64,000 nucleotides of DNA from a virus: the IMG/VR virus record IMGVR_UViG_3300021959_010405, positions 32,001 through 96,000 of that record. One strand, 5' to 3'. The stretch's first letter is position 1; each line of letters starts with the position of its first letter. A program made the translations under genes and the position numbers. Below, piece after piece: positions 5,286-37,500 of the stretch. The notes beneath the pieces are model-generated. The model was not told the origin of the DNA. It saw only the letters and a program-made list of their open reading frames with translations, and searched no databases.

Positions 5286-7058
5286 TTAACGCCGACGACG
5301 ACCACGCCTTCTAGTCTCGTCATCAATATTCGGGTCCGAATCATTTAGCTTCTTTGGGCTCTTACCAGGATTGCTCGAGTCAACCCCGTCGTAGTTGTTA
5401 CCATGACCGTTATTTTGTTTAAGAGCTGCATCTTCCTCGTCAGTCAAATTTCTAGAGCAATCAATCGAGCCGACGTCAGTCTCAACCTCCTCATAAAAAC
5501 TGACCAGAAATGCTAGATCTTGAAGATCGAACCCACTGCTACTTACATCCGTATGGGTCAACTCGACCAAGTAAATCACATCCCTCGAGCCGATCTTTAT
5601 CCTACCTTCCGAATCGAGAAATGGCAGAAGGAAGGACTCGATCGAGGGCTGCTGATACAGGGGCGTTGTTGTCGGAGGGACATCACCATTCCGAAGGGCC
5701 CTTACATTTTGTGAAACCGAGCGGGAGTCGAACGTTGAACTCCAATACCCGTCATGGCGTACGTAGCGTCCACTGAAATCGAGAGTGTCTCCGCTAGCCA
5801 ACTTTGTCGACCAAACAATCTTGTTTGGATTAATACGATCATTCGTATCAAAGAAAAAGCTTTTTGAGGAACCTCCATTCTGACTCACCCTTCCTTGCGT
5901 AGGTACCCATTCCCAGTGAACAACTTTATCACGCCAATTCTTCCAAACTCTCTTAACAGAGGCGCCAAGTACCCTAACATCAGCGAAGACGCAACGATCA
6001 GCTCGGACCGTTCCTGTATTTTCAATGGACACAATATCCGAAACAGCCTCAGGAACAGTAACATTCCACGATAGTGTTGGGTGAGTACCCGCTTGAACTT
6101 GAGTCGGGCTAGCAATCAATGTACCAACGGGGATGATCGGAGATTCTTCCTGTCCCAACATTAAAGCTGGTACTGCTGTCAGCATAATGAATATTAAGGC
6201 AAATAATTTACTAATAGTATTATTTAAAACGCTTTTCATAAAGAAAACGTCATGCCATTTACTTTCTTGCTTAAGAATACCGTTAAGATTAAATTTTTCG
6301 CAGATATTTTTAAACGTCTTGAAGTTAGGCTCAAATTCTGCATCAGGAATCTGACTATCATAAAACTTATACTCATCTACCCACATCTCATTGTGACTAT
6401 TATCTAGATCAATAAGCTCTCTATTTTTATCAACAATATCTTGTTGTTCTTGTGTCAGTATCTTTTCTCCTTTGATAATAGCAAGAGCTCTTTTATTACC
6501 AAACCCCTCTACGCCTTCAATATTGTCTGACTTATCACCAACAATACACTTATACTCACAAAATCTATTCGGATGCATGCCATATTTCTCATACATTGTG
6601 GGAATATCAAACAATATCTTTTTAATTGGTGAAAATACTTTAGTTTCTGCAGAAACTAATTGTAAAAGATCTGTATCCGCAGAAATAATGACATTCTCGC
6701 CTGGAAGCTTTTTTGATAGCCAGAAAATAATATCATCTGCTTCACCTCTCTTAGGATATACATTAATAATACCTAGTGACTCAAATAGATTCTCAATAAC
6801 ACTGGTAAGTTCATGGACCTGCGCATTATATTCATTATCTCTTGTTTCCTTATACACAGAATCACCTTCCTTTCTGAAAGCTACCTCTGAACTCTTACGC
6901 ATATCCCATGCGCAGTATATCTTTGTTGGTTCAAACTTTTCTACATAGGATTTAATAGATGTCAACACAATAGAGAGGTGATTTACACCACCCCTACTAT
7001 TTGATACCCAGTAGGCTCTATGTACAAGATTATTACCGTCAATTATTAGATTTTTCAT
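5286..7058 (-). CDS. rnh: T4-type RNase H (5'-3' exonuclease) fused in frame to a secreted-type protein domain
   Basis: Start revised to MKNLIIDGNN (7058). Exonuclease motifs IDGNN, EADD, SADTDLLQL, GDKSDNIEG run to ~6200; then a hydrophobic segment and a GC-rich unrelated domain. Confidence 0.85.
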   Translation of the reverse strand: MKNLIIDGNNLVHRAYWVSNSRGGVNHLSIVLTSIKSYVEKFEPTKIYCAWDMRKSSEVAFRKEGDSVYKETRDNEYNAQVHELTSVIENLFESLGIINVYPKRGEADDIIFWLSKKLPGENVIISADTDLLQLVSAETKVFSPIKKILFDIPTMYEKYGMHPNRFCEYKCIVGDKSDNIEGVEGFGNKRALAIIKGEKILTQEQQDIVDKNRELIDLDNSHNEMWVDEYKFYDSQIPDAEFEPNFKTFKNICEKFNLNGILKQESKWHDVFFMKSVLNNTISKLFALIFIMLTAVPALMLGQEESPIIPVGTLIASPTQVQAGTHPTLSWNVTVPEAVSDIVSIENTGTVRADRCVFADVRVLGASVKRVWKNWRDKVVHWEWVPTQGRVSQNGGSSKSFFFDTNDRINPNKIVWSTKLASGDTLDFSGRYVRHDGYWSSTFDSRSVSQNVRALRNGDVPPTTTPLYQQPSIESFLLPFLDSEGRIKIGSRDVIYLVELTHTDVSSSGFDLQDLAFLVSFYEEVETDVGSIDCSRNLTDEEDAALKQNNGHGNNYDGVDSSNPGKSPKKLNDSDPNIDDETRRRGRRRR

Positions 7059-30723: not shown

Positions 30724-32175
30724 CTAAGGTTCTTTTATTGTAGAAATATTGAATGGTATACTCTCCTTTCGATATATTTCTAACCTTTTGTTTAAATGTG
30801 ATATTCCATAATGTAGTTGATCGGCTAGATCAATAATAATTAATTTATTTTTACTGTGATGCTTTCTCAATCCTCTACCAATCGATTGTACTAGACGTAT
30901 AAAAGCCTTGCCCCCGCTTGCAAAAACAATCATATGTATATTTTTAATATTAATTCCTGTAGAAAATATAGATGACATTGCAATACAAATAACCCCGTTA
31001 TTATTCTCCATACTCTTTTTAATTTTCTCTCTATCGTCAACCTCTACCGAGCCTTGAACAAAATGAACTTCTCTATCTGAAATATTATTAAGAGTATCTA
31101 AGAGTATCTCGCCATGAGCTATATGATTAACTAGTATTAAAATATTATTTTTAAAATTACTACTTACTTGTTTTATTATTTTGTTACGATATTCACTCTC
31201 ATATAAAAAATCTAATTCTGCCTTGTATCTTGCCGTCGATGTAAATTCATCATCCTTAAAATATGTTTTAGGTTTCTTTTTATACTCAATTTTAAGAATT
31301 TTAACCTCCGCTGAAGTTAAAAATCCTTCTTCGCGAAGTTCATTACTACCTTTCTCATAATATACTGGACCTGTCTTTCCGATTATTGACCACCTATCCA
31401 TCTGCTCCTCTGGTAGGGTACCAGTAAAGCCATATTTATTATTAGTATATATCTTACTAATTAATTTACCTATTTTGTTCTTATGCTTTACTTTATGAGC
31501 TTCATCAATAACTACTAAATCTACATGTTCTATCCATGAATGATCGTCAAACTGACTTTGAACAATTTGATTACTCGCTATTACAACATTTACATTAGTA
31601 TCTAATTTATATTGTGAGGTCCATCTGCAGAAAGTAAATGGTACATTATACTCTTCAAAATCGCTGTATGTCTGCTGTACTAGACCGCGGTCAGGTACTA
31701 ATAACAAACACCTAAAATCTTTACCTCCCTTAGTTTTATTAATAATATTATGTATAAGAGTAGCTATTGTTAAGGTTTTACCTCCACCTGTCCCTAAAAC
31801 ACATACCCCCTTACCTCCTTTAAGAGCATTTTTTAAAATTTCTTCTTGATAATACCTTAATTCTAGATTATTATCTAAAAAGATGAGTTCATCGCTAAAA
31901 CCGCAATCTACAATCTCTCTAACTTCGCTTGTAAAGGAGATCTTACATGTAGGTGCAGATTCTTTTATTGTTTTTATAACATCAGATAAGAGACCTGGCT
32001 CGAACTTACCAGCAGGAGTTATAGAGTATAATCTTCTGGGGGCAAACTTGGACTGATATGCGGCCGCCTTATTAGGCACACTAAATTTCTCTCTTATTTC
32101 GTTTAACAATACGGAATTATCTGTTTTTATTAAACAGCGATTATGATTTATTGAGTAGTCAATCTCGACCTGCAT
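30724..32175 (-). CDS. uvsW: SF2 helicase UvsW
   Basis: LRYYQ, GTGGGKT, DEAH, FTGT, QSIGRGLR. Confidence 0.93.
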   Translation of the reverse strand: MQVEIDYSINHNRCLIKTDNSVLLNEIREKFSVPNKAAAYQSKFAPRRLYSITPAGKFEPGLLSDVIKTIKESAPTCKISFTSEVREIVDCGFSDELIFLDNNLELRYYQEEILKNALKGGKGVCVLGTGGGKTLTIATLIHNIINKTKGGKDFRCLLLVPDRGLVQQTYSDFEEYNVPFTFCRWTSQYKLDTNVNVVIASNQIVQSQFDDHSWIEHVDLVVIDEAHKVKHKNKIGKLISKIYTNNKYGFTGTLPEEQMDRWSIIGKTGPVYYEKGSNELREEGFLTSAEVKILKIEYKKKPKTYFKDDEFTSTARYKAELDFLYESEYRNKIIKQVSSNFKNNILILVNHIAHGEILLDTLNNISDREVHFVQGSVEVDDREKIKKSMENNNGVICIAMSSIFSTGINIKNIHMIVFASGGKAFIRLVQSIGRGLRKHHSKNKLIIIDLADQLHYGISHLNKRLEIYRKESIPFNISTIKEP

Positions 32176-32591: not shown

Positions 32592-32840
32592 ATGGAGAAA
32601 TCCAATCTTTATTTTAATACATTTATAAAAATACTATCTGAGGACTCAATCGCTGGAGATGGTGGCTCATTCGGTGAATTACAACCTACCGCTACTACAT
32701 TTAGCGGAGATAATTATGCGCCAGGGGATGCGCGTAATATATTCGGCGGATTACCTAATAAAATCCAAAGAAGAGCTGGAATTAGTACAAAAAAACGTAA
32801 AAAACGTAAAAAAACTAGAAAATCTCGTAAAAACCGTTGA
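32592..32840 (+). CDS. small protein with highly basic tail
   Basis: Leader ending ILSE; tail KKRKKRKKTRKSRKNR. Confidence 0.6.
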   Translation: MEKSNLYFNTFIKILSEDSIAGDGGSFGELQPTATTFSGDNYAPGDARNIFGGLPNKIQRRAGISTKKRKKRKKTRKSRKNR

Positions 32841-32909: not shown

Positions 32910-33332
32910 ATGATAAATTTAGGCCATTGGGTTACAGAATTAGAGATACCAGAAGATCCGTACGGATTTATATACGTTATAACAAATACCGATAATAATC
33001 ATAAGTATATTGGTAAAAAGCAGTGTAAGACCATCCTCAAACGCGCGCCTCTTAAGGGTAAGAAAAGAAAAAGACACGTCGAGAAAGATACTGACTGGAG
33101 AACATATACCGGATCGTGCAATAAGCTTAATTCTGATATTGAATCGATCGGTAAAGATAAATTTATTTTCGAAATTATTAGATTCTGCAATAATAAATGG
33201 GAATTAGCTTATTTCGAGATGAAAGAGCAGCTAGAAAAAGACGTTCTCATAAGTGATCAGTACTATAACGGTATTATTAATGCTAGAATCGGTAAAATTC
33301 CCGACGAAACACGCCGTCTTCTTGAAGAATAG
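32910..33332 (+). CDS. GIY-YIG family endonuclease
   Basis: GFIYVITN...KYIGKK, YTGS, YYN. Confidence 0.85.
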   Translation: MINLGHWVTELEIPEDPYGFIYVITNTDNNHKYIGKKQCKTILKRAPLKGKKRKRHVEKDTDWRTYTGSCNKLNSDIESIGKDKFIFEIIRFCNNKWELAYFEMKEQLEKDVLISDQYYNGIINARIGKIPDETRRLLEE

Positions 33333-33370: not shown

Positions 33371-33946
33371 ATGGGGGTAGATTTAAAATATTACAACATA
33401 GAGCTAATAGATATAACAGACATATTAGCGGATGTCGTTCTACCAGACTGGGTCGACTATATGCATGAATTCTCAGTAGATCTTAGTAAGAAATCTCATA
33501 AGCTTAAAATATTTTATCATTTTTTTATTAAAACAGTCTGCGATCTGCTCTTAGATGCAGATATCTCCACTAAAAAAGTACTATTTCTCAATCTTCGACA
33601 GGAGAGAATACCAAATACAATACTTCGTAATAGAGCAGCTGCAGCTGGCTATAATGATAGTGAGTTTTACCTACTTGTTAAGGGACTTATAACAAAACTC
33701 GAACGTAATTTTCCTCTTAAATTTTACATTAGTAGTTATTCTTATGATAAGTTCATGAAATTAATCGATTCTGGAGACGGTCACGCTGTTTATCACATCA
33801 ATCTAATGCGTAGCAAGTTGGATACTATAGGTAAAAATAAATATCAATATAATTTAGTTGATAAATTTATAAAGAAATATGAATTAACGTGGCTAGACGA
33901 GAACTATTTTAATGGTTTTAAGACAAAACTACTATCAATTCTATAA
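33371..33946 (+). CDS. hypothetical protein
   Basis: 191-aa ORF; no family recognised. Confidence 0.7.
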   Translation: MGVDLKYYNIELIDITDILADVVLPDWVDYMHEFSVDLSKKSHKLKIFYHFFIKTVCDLLLDADISTKKVLFLNLRQERIPNTILRNRAAAAGYNDSEFYLLVKGLITKLERNFPLKFYISSYSYDKFMKLIDSGDGHAVYHINLMRSKLDTIGKNKYQYNLVDKFIKKYELTWLDENYFNGFKTKLLSIL

Positions 33947-33959
33947 ATAATACTTATAT

Positions 33960-34373
33960 ATGAAGAAATTTGATCGTATAGCGCGTACCGCTATTGAGTA
34001 TTTGACTGAGCAATCTCCAAATGAGGTTCTCGGCGCTGCAGCACCAGTTGATCCGAATTTAGCTGCAGATCCATCGATGGGAGCCGGGGAGATGGCGCCT
34101 CAAGAAGCGCCTCCGGTAGAGGAACCTGAGCAGGAGGTAGAGACTTTATCACCAGAGGCTGAGGTAGTGCTAGTTAAGTTTATACGTAAAGCACTTTTAA
34201 TCGATTTATCCTTAGAAGATAAAGCTAAGTTAATTAATTTAATACCTACTGATAAAGATATCGATCAGACTAATGCTAAATCGATTTTGGAAGCCCTTCA
34301 ATCAATAATTGGATCGTATTCCACTACAAAAACAACAGAAGAGGATAAGGATAAATTAAACATACCTGGATAA
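33960..34373 (+). CDS. hypothetical protein, candidate head-internal protein
   Basis: TATAAATA at 33942..33949; leader ending YLTE; Pro/Glu-rich linker. Confidence 0.7.
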   Translation: MKKFDRIARTAIEYLTEQSPNEVLGAAAPVDPNLAADPSMGAGEMAPQEAPPVEEPEQEVETLSPEAEVVLVKFIRKALLIDLSLEDKAKLINLIPTDKDIDQTNAKSILEALQSIIGSYSTTKTTEEDKDKLNIPG

Positions 34374-34374
34374 T

Positions 34375-35430
34375 ATGAGTTGCTGGAAATCATTAAGTGA
34401 AATATATACTGAAATATATACTGAAAACGTAGTTGAAGGTAAAGAATTATTAAGTGCCCAAGATTTAATTTCAAAAATTAAAGAACTAGACAGTAATAAC
34501 GCGTTGACACCAGAAGTAATTGAATATCTAAATCAATATCTAAGTACGGTTCCATATAAAATAAAAATTATTAATCATCTTAACCGCCATAACTTGAATA
34601 GCTCGACCTTTAGCGGTGGCCCGGATAGTAATGTAGAAAATATCATTATTAATATAATAGCTAGAAATAATGATCTCGAAAATTATTTAAATTATATTAA
34701 TAATCCCGTCGATCTATCCAGTATAGGAAAATCCGGTAATTTAGTAGCAATAATGACCAAACAAACTGGGATGAGCATTAATACTGTTAAGAGTCTTATA
34801 AATATAATAGGGACTGAGAGTGGTCGAGGGATAGGTAAAGGTGAAGTCTTCTCAGCTGCTGTTTTTAACGACGTATCTCAAGGCGGAGCGGGTGAAGGCG
34901 ATCTTAATTGGAATGGAAGATACTTAGAGGTGAAGGGAACCAGCGCGAGATTAGGGGGACGGGGCCGAGAATTTGATAATTTTCAAAATATTACACTAGG
35001 TAAAATAGCATATACGCTTAATACTCCGGGGACGGCAAATTCTATTAAAATTGTAGATATTATTGTAAATATTGCCAAAAACAAAAGTGGTAATATTGAG
35101 AAAGAGCAATTGCAAAATGCAATTAGAGAATTTATAACGATGGCTTATGGGGTAAATATCGACAATATTATTAAATTAGAGTCTATTGATTTAAAAGATC
35201 CAAGAAAAGTTCGCAATATGTTAACTACTATATATTTTACCAGTTATGCAATGCGGCACAATGTATCGGATTTTCTTTTTATAAGAACAGATGAAAGTTC
35301 GCGAAGCGGGTTTGGTAACTTTAGATTGTTTAACGCTTCAGAAATTAAAAAGCTAGTGGATGAAGATATGATATCATGCGGCGTTATTACTCTTAAGAAC
35401 TTAGATCCATCACTCAATACTATTAAGTAA
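34375..35430 (+). CDS. hypothetical protein with PD-(D/E)xK-like nuclease motif
   Basis: GKGE...GDLNWNGRYLEVKG (D...ExK). Confidence 0.65.
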   Translation: MSCWKSLSEIYTEIYTENVVEGKELLSAQDLISKIKELDSNNALTPEVIEYLNQYLSTVPYKIKIINHLNRHNLNSSTFSGGPDSNVENIIINIIARNNDLENYLNYINNPVDLSSIGKSGNLVAIMTKQTGMSINTVKSLINIIGTESGRGIGKGEVFSAAVFNDVSQGGAGEGDLNWNGRYLEVKGTSARLGGRGREFDNFQNITLGKIAYTLNTPGTANSIKIVDIIVNIAKNKSGNIEKEQLQNAIREFITMAYGVNIDNIIKLESIDLKDPRKVRNMLTTIYFTSYAMRHNVSDFLFIRTDESSRSGFGNFRLFNASEIKKLVDEDMISCGVITLKNLDPSLNTIK

Positions 35431-35449
35431 ATATTGCTGATTTATAAAT

Positions 35450-36727
35450 ATGAGAACATTTAAACAATACTATAAAAATAAAAAACAAAATCTCTATTTA
35501 GAATTTTTTGATGCTATAGATGGCGCAGTTAAGCACATTGATCATTTAGAGGAAAACATTCTTAACAAAGGTAAGCAAGGAGTACATGACGCACTAAATC
35601 AAATTGAAGCTTCGATAAAGTACTTCACAGAAGAATCTGATTATAAAATTAGTGTTAAGTTTGATGGAGCTCCAGCTATAGTTGCAGGGACTGATCCTAG
35701 TGGAAGATTCTTTGTAGCCAGTAAGTCCGCTTTTGCAAAAAATCCAAAAATAAACTATACTGTTGAAGATATTGAGCGAAATCACGGCCACGCTCCAGGT
35801 TTGGTAGATAAATTAGTAAAAGCTTTAAAATATTTACCTTCTTTAAATATAAAAGGCATCTATCAAATGGATTTTATGTTTGATGATCAACTCAAGCAAA
35901 TAGAAACCCCACAAACAATAGATGGTGTGCCCAATGAGAATACATTTATAACATTTACACCGAATACCATTAAGTATGCTGTATCTCCGGATAGTCCGTA
36001 TGGAGATCAAATACAGAAAGCACAAATAGGGGTTGCAGTGCATATTGAATATGAGGTGCGTGATGGGATTCTTAAGGTTAAAAAATATACATCAAGTCCG
36101 GATGAGTTTTCATCTTCTAATACGGTATTTTTATTCAACGTTTTAGCGGGTAAGTCTAAACAAGGTGTGAGTAGGTTCACAAAAAGACTTTTAACCGATG
36201 TTAAACGTAAGAAAGAGCGTGTATTAAAATTATCTAACAATATAAAGTTTAAAGAGCTCGAACCTTATAACGCGTTAATAAAGACGTATATTAATAGTGA
36301 AATTAGAAGCGGTAGATTCTTAGATAATATTGCAATGTCTACTGATGAATTAGTAAGATATAATGCTGATAGATATCAAAAGCAAATTGATAAGCTTAAA
36401 TCCGATGCTGGTAAGCAAAGAAAGAAAGAACAAATGGATGCAGATATGGGTAAGCTTATGGAGCTTAGATCTTCCGTTAAGGGGGTATTGGAAATTACTA
36501 AAATTATAGCAATGTTAAAAAATAATCTCGTTAAAATATTTAATGAGATAACTCGCAACGATTTGCTTGGAAATTATCTCGATGAGGGAGGCGGTCAATG
36601 GCAAACAACCGCGCCAGAAGGTTTCGCTTTATCGAAGGTAGATGATGAAGGGGCTCAAATAACCAAAATGGTAGATCGTCAAGAATTTAGTGCAGCAAAC
36701 TTTGGAACTGGAAAACCTGGATCATGA
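35450..36727 (+). CDS. DUF6267-like protein with RNA/DNA-ligase-type nucleotidyltransferase motifs
   Basis: HIDHLEE, VKFDG (motif I), QMDFMF, EGFA (motif IV), KMVDR (motif V-like). Confidence 0.75.
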   Translation: MRTFKQYYKNKKQNLYLEFFDAIDGAVKHIDHLEENILNKGKQGVHDALNQIEASIKYFTEESDYKISVKFDGAPAIVAGTDPSGRFFVASKSAFAKNPKINYTVEDIERNHGHAPGLVDKLVKALKYLPSLNIKGIYQMDFMFDDQLKQIETPQTIDGVPNENTFITFTPNTIKYAVSPDSPYGDQIQKAQIGVAVHIEYEVRDGILKVKKYTSSPDEFSSSNTVFLFNVLAGKSKQGVSRFTKRLLTDVKRKKERVLKLSNNIKFKELEPYNALIKTYINSEIRSGRFLDNIAMSTDELVRYNADRYQKQIDKLKSDAGKQRKKEQMDADMGKLMELRSSVKGVLEITKIIAMLKNNLVKIFNEITRNDLLGNYLDEGGGQWQTTAPEGFALSKVDDEGAQITKMVDRQEFSAANFGTGKPGS

Positions 36728-37323
36728 ATTTTACCCAATATGTAGAAAGTCAAAATAGTAACTCAGTAGCCTTACTACCGGGAGGGTTTAAGCCACCAAC
36801 AAAGGGTCACTTTAGAGCATTTAAATATATTCTCGAAGATGCTGATAAAGGTATTGTATTTATCGGTTCAGGTGACCGTGAGTTAGTAGAGAATGAGCCA
36901 GAAAAAGGAGTCATTACTCAAGCTCAATCAAAAGCTATCTGGGAGATCTATGCCAAGCATCTTGGTAAGCCAATTGAGGTTCGTACATCAGCAAATACCC
37001 CTGTTAGGGATGTATATAAATATGCAGATGCAAATCCAGATTTACCAATTATTGTAGGTGCTGGTGGGCCGCGTGAAATCAAACCTGGGGTATTTGATAA
37101 GGGTGATATGAAGCGTTATGAATATTTCGTAAAGAACCCTGAGAAGTATCCTCTTGTTAGGGTTGTTCAGATTCCAAGTCAAGAAAAAGGTATGCGAGCT
37201 ACTGTAATGAGAGAGCTACTTGCAAAGGATTTAGATGCTGGTATTGAAGCATTTGCACCTCTTGGTGATGATGGTATAACAGAATCTGATAAAGATGCAA
37301 TTAAGAGCATTTTAGGTGGCTAA
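36724..37323 (+). CDS. HxGH-superfamily nucleotidyltransferase (cytidylyltransferase/NMNAT-like)
   Basis: PGGFKPPTKGH and C-terminal MRATVMR; start overlaps the upstream gene stop. Confidence 0.82.
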   Translation: MNFTQYVESQNSNSVALLPGGFKPPTKGHFRAFKYILEDADKGIVFIGSGDRELVENEPEKGVITQAQSKAIWEIYAKHLGKPIEVRTSANTPVRDVYKYADANPDLPIIVGAGGPREIKPGVFDKGDMKRYEYFVKNPEKYPLVRVVQIPSQEKGMRATVMRELLAKDLDAGIEAFAPLGDDGITESDKDAIKSILGG

Positions 37324-37344: not shown

Positions 37345-37500
37345 GTTGTTCAGATACCAAGTCAAGAAAAAGGTATGAGTGGTACTGAAATGCGAAAGCT
37401 TATTGCTGATGATTTAGACGAGGCTTTAAAATATTTCGTGCCAGAGGAGGTATCCACGGAGGGTCGTGAAATGATTAAACTAATTCTTCAAGGTAGTTAA
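37345..37500 (+). pseudogene. orphan alternative C-terminus of the nucleotidyltransferase
   Basis: 37345..37377 matches 37162..37194 at 32/33 nt, then continues as a diverged 51-aa open frame VVQIPSQEKGMSGTEMRK...QGS*. Confidence 0.8.

Follow-up and report, generated by a model that had tools for sequence, protein, structure and literature searches.

A recurrent pair of a DUF6267 ligase-like protein and a T/HxGH nucleotidyltransferase in T4-like phages, with leaders resembling the T4 capsid targeting sequence

Introduction

The enzyme kinds considered here, the ligase superfamily and the HxGH transferases, are known, as is the capsid targeting sequence (CTS) of phage T4. Within the CTS, residues 4 and 7 serve targeting and residues 8 and 10 serve processing, and CTS-like sequences may allow T4-like phages to load varied proteins, according to PMC9026906. 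The closest described gene arrangement is that of cyanomyoviruses, in which a DUF6267 gene is followed by a gene annotated as a 'cytidyltransferase' (Syn9 gp183-gp184-gp185; PHM2_162-163-164 of P-HM2, annotated as T4-like GC 71, 190 and 534; S-SZBM1 141-140-139). Here we describe the same gene order in a pair of genes, B and C, on a 64,000-nucleotide stretch of DNA (the window; positions 32,001 to 96,000 of IMG/VR virus record IMGVR_UViG_3300021959_010405). The source is an uncultured marine T4-like myophage. Relative to the window, the cyanophage modules encode DUF6267 proteins with 26-33% identity to B that often lack a leader, and they carry two HxGH-type genes rather than one.

In the literature that we searched, the combination of these enzymes with a CTS, the helical insertion in the ligase-like protein and the regular pairing of the two genes are undescribed. 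Full-text searches returned no paper on DUF6267 (PF19782) or on the pairing of a phage RNA ligase with a cytidyltransferase, and a search combining the capsid targeting sequence with cyanophages found a T4 review alone.

A preliminary description of this DNA, made from the letters alone, had proposed a nuclease-like, ligase-like and nucleotidyltransferase trio in which all three proteins carry head-targeting leaders. The three consecutive open reading frames (ORFs) on the plus strand lie exactly where it placed them:

34375 to 35430, plus strand: gene A, 351 residues, PD-(D/E)xK-like (GTESGRGxGKGE ... G-D176-L ... L-E185-V-K187-G)
35450 to 36727, plus strand: gene B, 425 residues, DUF6267 (PF19782), phrog_455
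36724 to 37323, plus strand: gene C, 199 residues, T/HxGH nucleotidyltransferase, adenylyltransferase-like

All of the motifs that it quoted (KFDG, DFMF, EGFA, KMVDR, TKGH and D...ExK) are present, and their conservation in family alignments exceeds chance. We lean towards a narrower reading of the locus, in which B and C are a conserved pair of ligase-like and NMNAT/PPAT-type enzymes that would be packaged by means of CTS leaders and injected with the DNA, and in which A is a mere neighbour.

Pairing of B and C

The stop codon of B and the start codon of C overlap in ATGA, the overlap that the preliminary description had reported. Among the best 120 listed relatives of B, 69 are 601-673 residues long, and all 10 of the long tails that were inspected contain a T/HxGH domain, in three subtypes: GGYKPPTKGH (as in C), GRFHPFHKGH and GRMNPPTIGH. 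A Pfam match to the HxGH superfamily (PF01467, PF08218 or PF02569) was found in 17 of 43 long representatives, and the matching domain is N-terminal in some and C-terminal in others. A scan of 80 DUF6267 loci on viral contigs with a strict motif placed the HxGH domain in a fusion with DUF6267 in 9 and in a same-strand adjacent gene in 34. Of the 37 loci without the motif, 15 had less than 1 kb of flank on one side. A profile built from the motif matches found HxGH in 49/80 of these loci. The recurrent pairing of DUF6267 with a so-called cytidylyltransferase in aquatic T4-like phages, which the preliminary description had mentioned, is thus borne out: it is frequent, often takes the form of a fusion, occurs in both domain orders and is not universal. 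We place C in the same pathway as B, given the translational coupling of the two genes in the window and the many relatives in which they are fused, in one order or the other.

One 1325-residue representative (P0362) combines in a single chain DUF6267, HxGH, a RimK-type ATP-grasp domain (E 9.4e-37) and a putative zinc protease (PF05618).

The DUF6267 protein B

Gene B matches PF19782 with 262.1 bits (cut-off 27; E 1.3e-77) across profile positions 2-376 of 376. Its conservation was assessed in an alignment of 87 DUF6267 sequences with 28-70% identity to B, and its motifs and helical insertion are as follows:

35657 to 35668, plus strand: motif I of B, K70FDG (residues 70-73); K70, D72 and G73 invariant
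Residues 141-144 of B, plus strand: DFMF, motif present
36170 to 36550, plus strand: helical insertion in the model of B (residues 241-367)
36617 to 36628, plus strand: motif IV of B, E390GFA (residues 390-393); E390 and G391 invariant
36665 to 36679, plus strand: motif V of B, K406MVDR (residues 406-410); K406 and R410 invariant

Further residues invariant in the 87 sequences are H32, P75, F87, K92, N172, H198, N282, F413 and N417, and an N-terminal H29-x-x-H32-x-E34 is conserved in DUF6267. Candidates for motif III (Q139, D141) and motif IIIa (F169, P171 and T173, each at least 90% conserved, with the invariant N172) were placed by position only.

A structural model of B built from the same alignment has a predicted local distance difference test score (pLDDT) of 91 and a predicted template modelling score (pTM) of 0.88. 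Residues 1-28 score low (pLDDT blocks of 59, 47 and 66 across residues 1-30), and the leader is disordered in the model. The remainder consists of a beta-rich core (residues 65-230 and 374-407) and a helical bundle of roughly 125 residues that precedes motif IV. In a structure comparison (VIA) the ten best chains were all ligases and RNA ligases held ranks 1-7, with alignments that span the adenylyltransferase domain only. The adenosine triphosphate (ATP)-dependent RNA ligases near B in shape are Naegleria NgrRnl (5cot), the fungal Trl1 ligase domain (9r3w, 6n0t), T4 Rnl2 (2hvq, 1s68), Trypanosoma REL1 (1xdn) and T4 Rnl1 (9do4, 2c5u). Foldseek found no match in the PDB at E<=0.001, and its best match was T4 Rnl1 (E 0.021). 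A search of BFVD returned family members, including a 591-residue 'cytidyltransferase-like' protein of S-PM2 whose alignment with B spans 415 columns, together with weak viral RNA ligases.

At the level of sequence the likeness disappears. Identity to the RNA ligases is 9-14%, and the DUF6267 profile found only low-complexity helical matches among PDB sequences, with no ligase. B also differs from these enzymes in what it has in addition: the 125-residue helical bundle (residues 241-367), the N-terminal HxxHxE, a CTS-like leader and a regular HxGH partner. From the modelled fold and the intact motifs I, IV and V, we consider it likely, with good confidence, that B is a divergent ligase-type lysine nucleotidyltransferase whose shape is nearest to RNA ligases; the structure search agrees with the ligase-type assignment first made from motifs alone.

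We found DUF6267 in 1,827 representative clusters (E<=0.001) and in 463 of 50,697 deposited phage records, mostly cyanophages. One relative (P0001) is 96% identical to B.

The nucleotidyltransferase C

Two sites define gene C as a candidate T/HxGH enzyme:

36799 to 36810, plus strand: TKGH of C (residues 26-29), within GGFKPPT26KGH29; T26, G28 and H29 invariant
37192 to 37212, plus strand: MRATVMR163 of C, replacing the family's ISGTxTR; R163 invariant

Across 40 C-family sequences the invariant residues are G20, G21, K23, P24, P25, T26, G28, H29 and R163. The family consensus ISGTxTR corresponds to the C-terminal motif of the ISxTxxR type. C resembles the archaeal-type NMNATs (MJ0541, 1f9a; M. 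thermautotrophicus, 1m8f/1ej2) and PPAT/CoaD in its strand-loop GxFxPx(T/H)xGH and in a C-terminal arginine of the (I)S(G)TxxR type. It is unlike them in having MRATVMR in place of ISGTxTR, in its leader and in the fusion of its relatives to DUF6267. The nearest solved chains, all of them weak matches, are MJ0541 (E 0.0099 by protein, 0.017 by profile), other archaeal NMNATs and PPAT, in keeping with the HxGH type that had been proposed.

The best NCBIfam model for C of the window is NMNAT (1.5e-4), with PPAT at 0.034; across 40 family members, matches to PPAT (36/40), NMNAT (34/40) and NadD (22/40) all fall far under the cut-offs. C matches the PHROG family labelled 'cytidyltransferase' (phrog_395) at 9.4e-5, and there is no glycerol-3-phosphate or choline-phosphate cytidylyltransferase model among the 22 NCBIfam families listed. 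A search of the ESM Atlas with C returned only the phage clusters of its own family. On these comparisons C belongs to the T/HxGH superfamily and looks more adenylyltransferase-like than cytidylyltransferase-like.

Two members of the C family (P0137 and P0220) have a basic C-terminal extension of roughly 100 residues (...KVNFGHGGTSAKRRGEKTMKIRKSNPKARKSFRARHNCDNP...). In the window, the end of C is followed by a further element:

37345 to 37500, plus strand: partial second copy of the 3' end of gene C, directly after the C stop, encoding ...VVQIPSQEKGMSGTEMRKLIADDLDEALKYFVPEEVSTEGREMIKLILQGS

Between GTTGTTCAGAT and the ATG of a 41-residue ORF, both included, this copy is identical to C at 32/33 aligned bases; beyond that point it is divergent. 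The tail of its peptide is identical to the C-termini of two relatives, P0160 and P0232, and P0160 has a longest contig of the same length (24207) as P0001, the relative 96% identical to B. The element is probably the scar of an allele replacement in which most of C was swapped for the version of another phage.

Leaders and head packaging

Both proteins of the pair begin with a short stretch that resembles the leaders of T4 internal proteins:

35450 to 35503, plus strand: leader of B, MRTFKQYYKNKKQNLYLE, like that of T4 IPI (MKTFKEF...ITE)
36724 to 36747, plus strand: leader of C, MNFTQYVE

Translated from NC_000866, the T4 leaders are MKTYQEFIAE followed by A in IPIII and IPII, and MKTFKEFTSTTTPVSTITE followed by A in IPI. 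The leader consensus of the C family is MKTFKEYFE(D/Q), with M1 and F3 (window numbering) invariant, and its MKTFKEY parallels the MKTFKEF of IPI. DUF6267 proteins frequently start with M-x-x-F-K-(Q/E)-(F/Y)-(L/I)-x-E, a pattern whose MxxFKQ(F/Y)(L/I)xE form is close to the MKTYQEFIAE of IPIII. At the targeting positions B has F4 and Y7; C, which is one residue shorter, has F3 and Y6.

A strict regular expression for the leader matched 41 of 113 DUF6267 representatives (with leaders of at least 9 residues) and, in the C family, 65 of 120 proteins; the background was 70/11,300 shuffled leaders and 0/169 ORFs of the contig. A looser version matched 3 of the 602 ATG-started frames on the 117-kb contig, namely B, C and one internal ATG. 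The triplet [LIVM]-x-E, at most 17 residues before the DUF6267 core (HLxHxED), was found in 101/114 N-terminal and 20/21 internal cases, compared with 405/2,700 control windows (15%), an enrichment of about six-fold. The internal cases are multi-domain proteins with a leader-like stretch before the DUF6267 core, for example FSKNWWKEQLTEVITE-TKANTHLTHLEE, and such stretches fit with cutting of a polyprotein by a prohead protease.

The contig encodes a gp21-type prohead protease (contig positions 106354-106824; PF03420, 98.2 bits, E 2.4e-29), with the gp23 capsid protein encoded nearby; in the capsid protein of this phage the corresponding sequence is LME followed by S. Because both proteins have T4-type leaders and the contig that bears their genes also codes for a gp21-type protease, B and C are probably loaded into the prohead, trimmed and ejected. 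They differ from the T4 internal proteins, which are small and basic, in being predicted enzymes of 45 and 22 kDa.

Published virion proteomes of cyanophages bear on the same question. The S-SZBM1 virion list in PMC9146016 includes the cytidylyltransferase SSZBM1_140 (2 peptides) and SSZBM1_139 (4 peptides). SSZBM1_140 starts with MRFRQFIIE followed by A, and the DUF6267 gene of this phage is SSZBM1_141 according to its record; in this single phage, the partner with the leader is the protein that was detected. In S-CREM2 virions the cytidylyltransferase ORF154 was detected, and the authors remark that cytidyltransferases are often found in cyanophage virion proteomes (PMC10665884). Taking the sequence signals together with these proteomes of others, which concern the HxGH partner, we consider that the pair is probably packaged.

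CTS-like starts were also seen in other genes beside DUF6267, with MKTFKQYFFES, MKSFLNFITES and MKTFKEHLFET at three loci (L074, L094 and L126). This suggests clusters of head-cargo genes at these loci.

Gene A and the surrounding region

In gene A, the residues of D176-x8-E185-x-K187 are invariant in 11 A-family sequences, and in a model of A the catalytic-type residues lie on strands 177-179 and 182-187. The top fold matches, all weak, are the monomeric type II restriction endonucleases HhaI, HinP1I and MspI, with which A shares this PD-(D/E)xK-type arrangement. No family was found for A in Pfam or PHROG, its profile retrieved nothing from PDB sequences, and a large protein collection yielded 10 homologues. 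A PD-(D/E)xK nuclease is the best reading of A, and it is not secure.

Among 58 A-family viral loci, A stands beside DUF6267 in 2 (L007 and L014, where A, DUF6267 and C are consecutive and co-oriented); in another (L006) a C-like sequence lies ~3.5 kb downstream of A, and the remaining 55/58 have neither DUF6267 nor C in the available flanks. Conversely, A relatives occur in 2/80 DUF6267 loci. The gene ahead of the pair in Syn9 and P-HM2 is unrelated to A, as BLASTP found no similarity between A and the same-position genes gp182 and PHM2_161. Membership of A in the module was therefore rejected: because A adjoins DUF6267 in just 2/58 loci, the conserved unit is the B-C pair and not the trio that had been proposed. 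The leaders that the preliminary description had given to all three proteins likewise stand for B and C, which resemble IPI, IPII and IPIII, and fall for A, where the strict leader expression matched 0/10 homologues. A protease site at the YTE of A (in an IYTE repeat) found no support; the YTE is part of a motif that the family has at its N-terminus, which reads LYTEWAWR (the commonest form) or LLSEWAYR. One virion-detected protein of S-SZBM1 starts ...LLGYTEYE.

An ORF of 522-525 residues follows A by 11-33 bp in 29/58 A-family loci; one such ORF was tested, that of L027, and proved to be a large terminase (Terminase_6N, E 1.4e-9), and at L061 a terminase is the second gene downstream of A. 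These observations suggest that the role of A is linked to packaging and separate from B and C. The pattern was noted at loci L027-L062, and a short acidic protein is usually encoded just ahead of A. The window has such an upstream gene as well:

33942 to 33949, plus strand: TATAAATA octamer, T4 late-promoter-like, 11 nt 5' of the 137-residue ORF that heads the run ORF137-A-B-C
33960 to 34373, plus strand: 137-residue acidic protein, N-terminus MKKFDRIARTAIEYLTE..., with no match in Pfam or PHROG

Many A-family genes elsewhere are likewise preceded by a short acidic ORF whose N-terminal helix is similar and ends in L-x-E (e.g. MTIEELNKLIKEELDAYL.E, MKKKDLENIILEAY.EVL.E).

The host contig is a 117,429-bp IMG/VR viral contig with a CheckV completeness of about 55%. 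Inside the window it encodes a T4-like gene set (gp43 polymerase, gp46/47, gp55, UvsW, UvsY, UvsX, a gp41-type helicase and a primase), and the A-B-C region lies at the start of a plus strand block oriented divergently to the uvsW-uvsY genes. A blastn search of the region against 50,697 phage records gave no DNA-level match. The TATAAATA octamer occurs 19 times in the window against 17.5 +/- 4.3 expected; because it is not enriched, it is merely consistent with late transcription and we do not use it as evidence. Another copy at 35443-35450 (plus strand) has as its last base the A of the gene B ATG and may be due to chance in AT-rich DNA; as a promoter it would be too close for B's own translation. 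A scan for sigma-70 promoters and terminators gave results at chance level.

Further upstream, TATAAATA stands 6 nt ahead of an ORF of 82 residues (32592-32840, plus strand). Its product, with ...FIKILSE near the N-terminus and a tail that is strongly basic (KKRKKRKKTRKSRKNR), is a candidate small internal head protein. The plus strand block is headed by an ORF of 140 residues (32910-33332, plus strand) that matches phrog_447, labelled NAD synthetase (3.4e-32), as well as homing-endonuclease PHROGs (phrog_7363, 3.9e-18). A free-standing homing endonuclease is the probable identity of this ORF, and the 'NAD synthetase' label of phrog_447 looks wrong.

Proposed mechanism and alternatives

We propose that B and C would be made late in infection and bind the prohead core through their leaders, which the gp21-type protease would then trim. 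Both proteins would leave the head with the DNA and could act in the new host before any phage gene is expressed. There, B would charge K70 with a nucleotide, forming a lysyl-nucleotide, and pass the nucleotide to the 5'-phosphate of a nucleic acid, thereby sealing or marking a break. C would take part in the same pathway, in which it would either produce the nucleotide cofactor or share the substrate of B.

Several results weigh against this model. The profile did not find an HxGH gene in 31/80 DUF6267 loci, and no end-healing partner regularly accompanies DUF6267: an ORF with a Walker-A motif lies directly downstream in just 2/80 loci (L142 and L144). We accordingly found no specific support for a role of the pair in RNA repair, one of the functions first suggested for it. 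In C, the match to PF01467 (14.6 bits, E 0.039) lies under the 21-bit gathering cut-off, which fused relatives do pass (P0257, 37.2 bits); its NCBIfam scores are far below the cut-offs for NMNAT (NF002243, 21.4 of 127 bits; TIGR01527, 18.2 of 181) and PPAT (TIGR01510, 14.2 of 103); and the NCBIfam matches of the family span mainly the first 45 residues. As to packaging, the cleavage triplets of the window, YLE in B and YVE in C, are not the canonical (L/I)-x-E, and the strict leader expression misses the window's own B and C leaders. SSZBM1_141 starts directly at the core, without a leader, and the main text and tables of PMC9146016, including the virion list, do not contain it. The authors of PMC10665884 caution that abundant late enzymes may co-purify with virions.

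At L144, the downstream ORF (5381-6055, plus strand) encodes an AAA_33 P-loop kinase (E 1.2e-11) with a CTS-like leader, MKQFLTHLSE, and the Walker-A ORF at L142 is similar. Such a kinase neighbour is too rare (2/80) to define the function of the pair.

The points on packaging speak for a rival reading in which B and C would be ordinary cytoplasmic late enzymes that are never packaged, and whose shared N-terminus would be a conserved helix with another role, such as expression or partner binding. Many cyanophage DUF6267 proteins lack a leader (Syn9 gp183 and PHM2_162 as well as SSZBM1_141), and the lack of enrichment of the TATAAATA octamer is also in keeping with this explanation. We nevertheless judge it unlikely, given that the C-family leader matches T4 IPI across its first 7 residues, that the leader is very rare among the ORFs of the contig, that the six-fold enrichment before the DUF6267 core extends to multi-domain proteins, and that the leader-bearing partner was seen in the listed S-SZBM1 virion proteome. 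B might also be something other than an RNA ligase, such as a DNA nick sealer, or an enzyme of the 5'-end adenylylating or capping type that acts on the injected genome or on early transcripts. This is rather unlikely, as RNA ligases hold the top seven ranks in the structure comparison, T4 Rnl1 is the best Foldseek match and no capping enzyme appears among the 50 VIA matches listed; neither an OB domain nor an Rnl1/Rnl2-type C-terminal domain was recognised in the secondary structure of the model, for which no domain-wise search was made. The trio in its original form, with A cutting, B sealing and C supplying the nucleotide as one packaged cut-and-repair unit, can point to the consecutive, co-oriented order of the three genes here and in L007 and L014, and to the invariant D...ExK of A. 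We hold it to be highly improbable given the rarity of A beside DUF6267 in both sets of loci, the terminase-sized ORF that follows A in half of its own loci, the lack of a CTS-like leader on A and its dissimilarity to the same-position genes of Syn9 and P-HM2.

A different proposal concerns the supply of nicotinamide adenine dinucleotide (NAD+). An NAD+-dependent ligase (LigA) releases nicotinamide mononucleotide (NMN), which NMNAT (NadD/NadM) converts back to NAD+. In this scheme C would be an NMNAT that rebuilds NAD+ early, against NAD-depleting defences or for NAD-using enzymes, and B would use NAD+ as donor of adenosine monophosphate or have another role. NMNAT is the best NCBIfam match of C, archaeal NMNATs are its nearest solved chains, and the cyanophage enzyme is described as an NMNAT homologue in PMC10665884. 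C may have an NAD+ role, but no score favours this over PPAT-like chemistry, and we consider the scheme as a whole quite unlikely. More speculative, and very unlikely in our estimate, is a genome-delivered device for two-step nucleotide transfer that is unlike known ligase systems: either an NAD+-using sealer that brings its own NMNAT into NAD-depleted, defence-activated cells, or a capper of 5'-phosphates. In the capping version, which shares that low estimate, nucleotide caps (App-type ends) would be placed on the incoming DNA or on RNA and shield the ends from host exonucleases. In either version the HxxHxE of DUF6267 would be the module specific to a cofactor or partner. We retain, as a cautious preference, the reading of B and C as a packaged and injected pair.

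Significance

DUF6267 is very widespread in aquatic T4-like phages. If the packaged-pair reading is true, many phages of the ocean deliver to their hosts an adenylyltransferase and, with it, a strand-joining enzyme made in advance. Next to T4 Alt and the internal proteins, the pair would represent a new class of enzymes carried in by the virion. The leader would then allow head cargo of uncultured T4-like phages to be predicted by a simple rule at the level of sequence.

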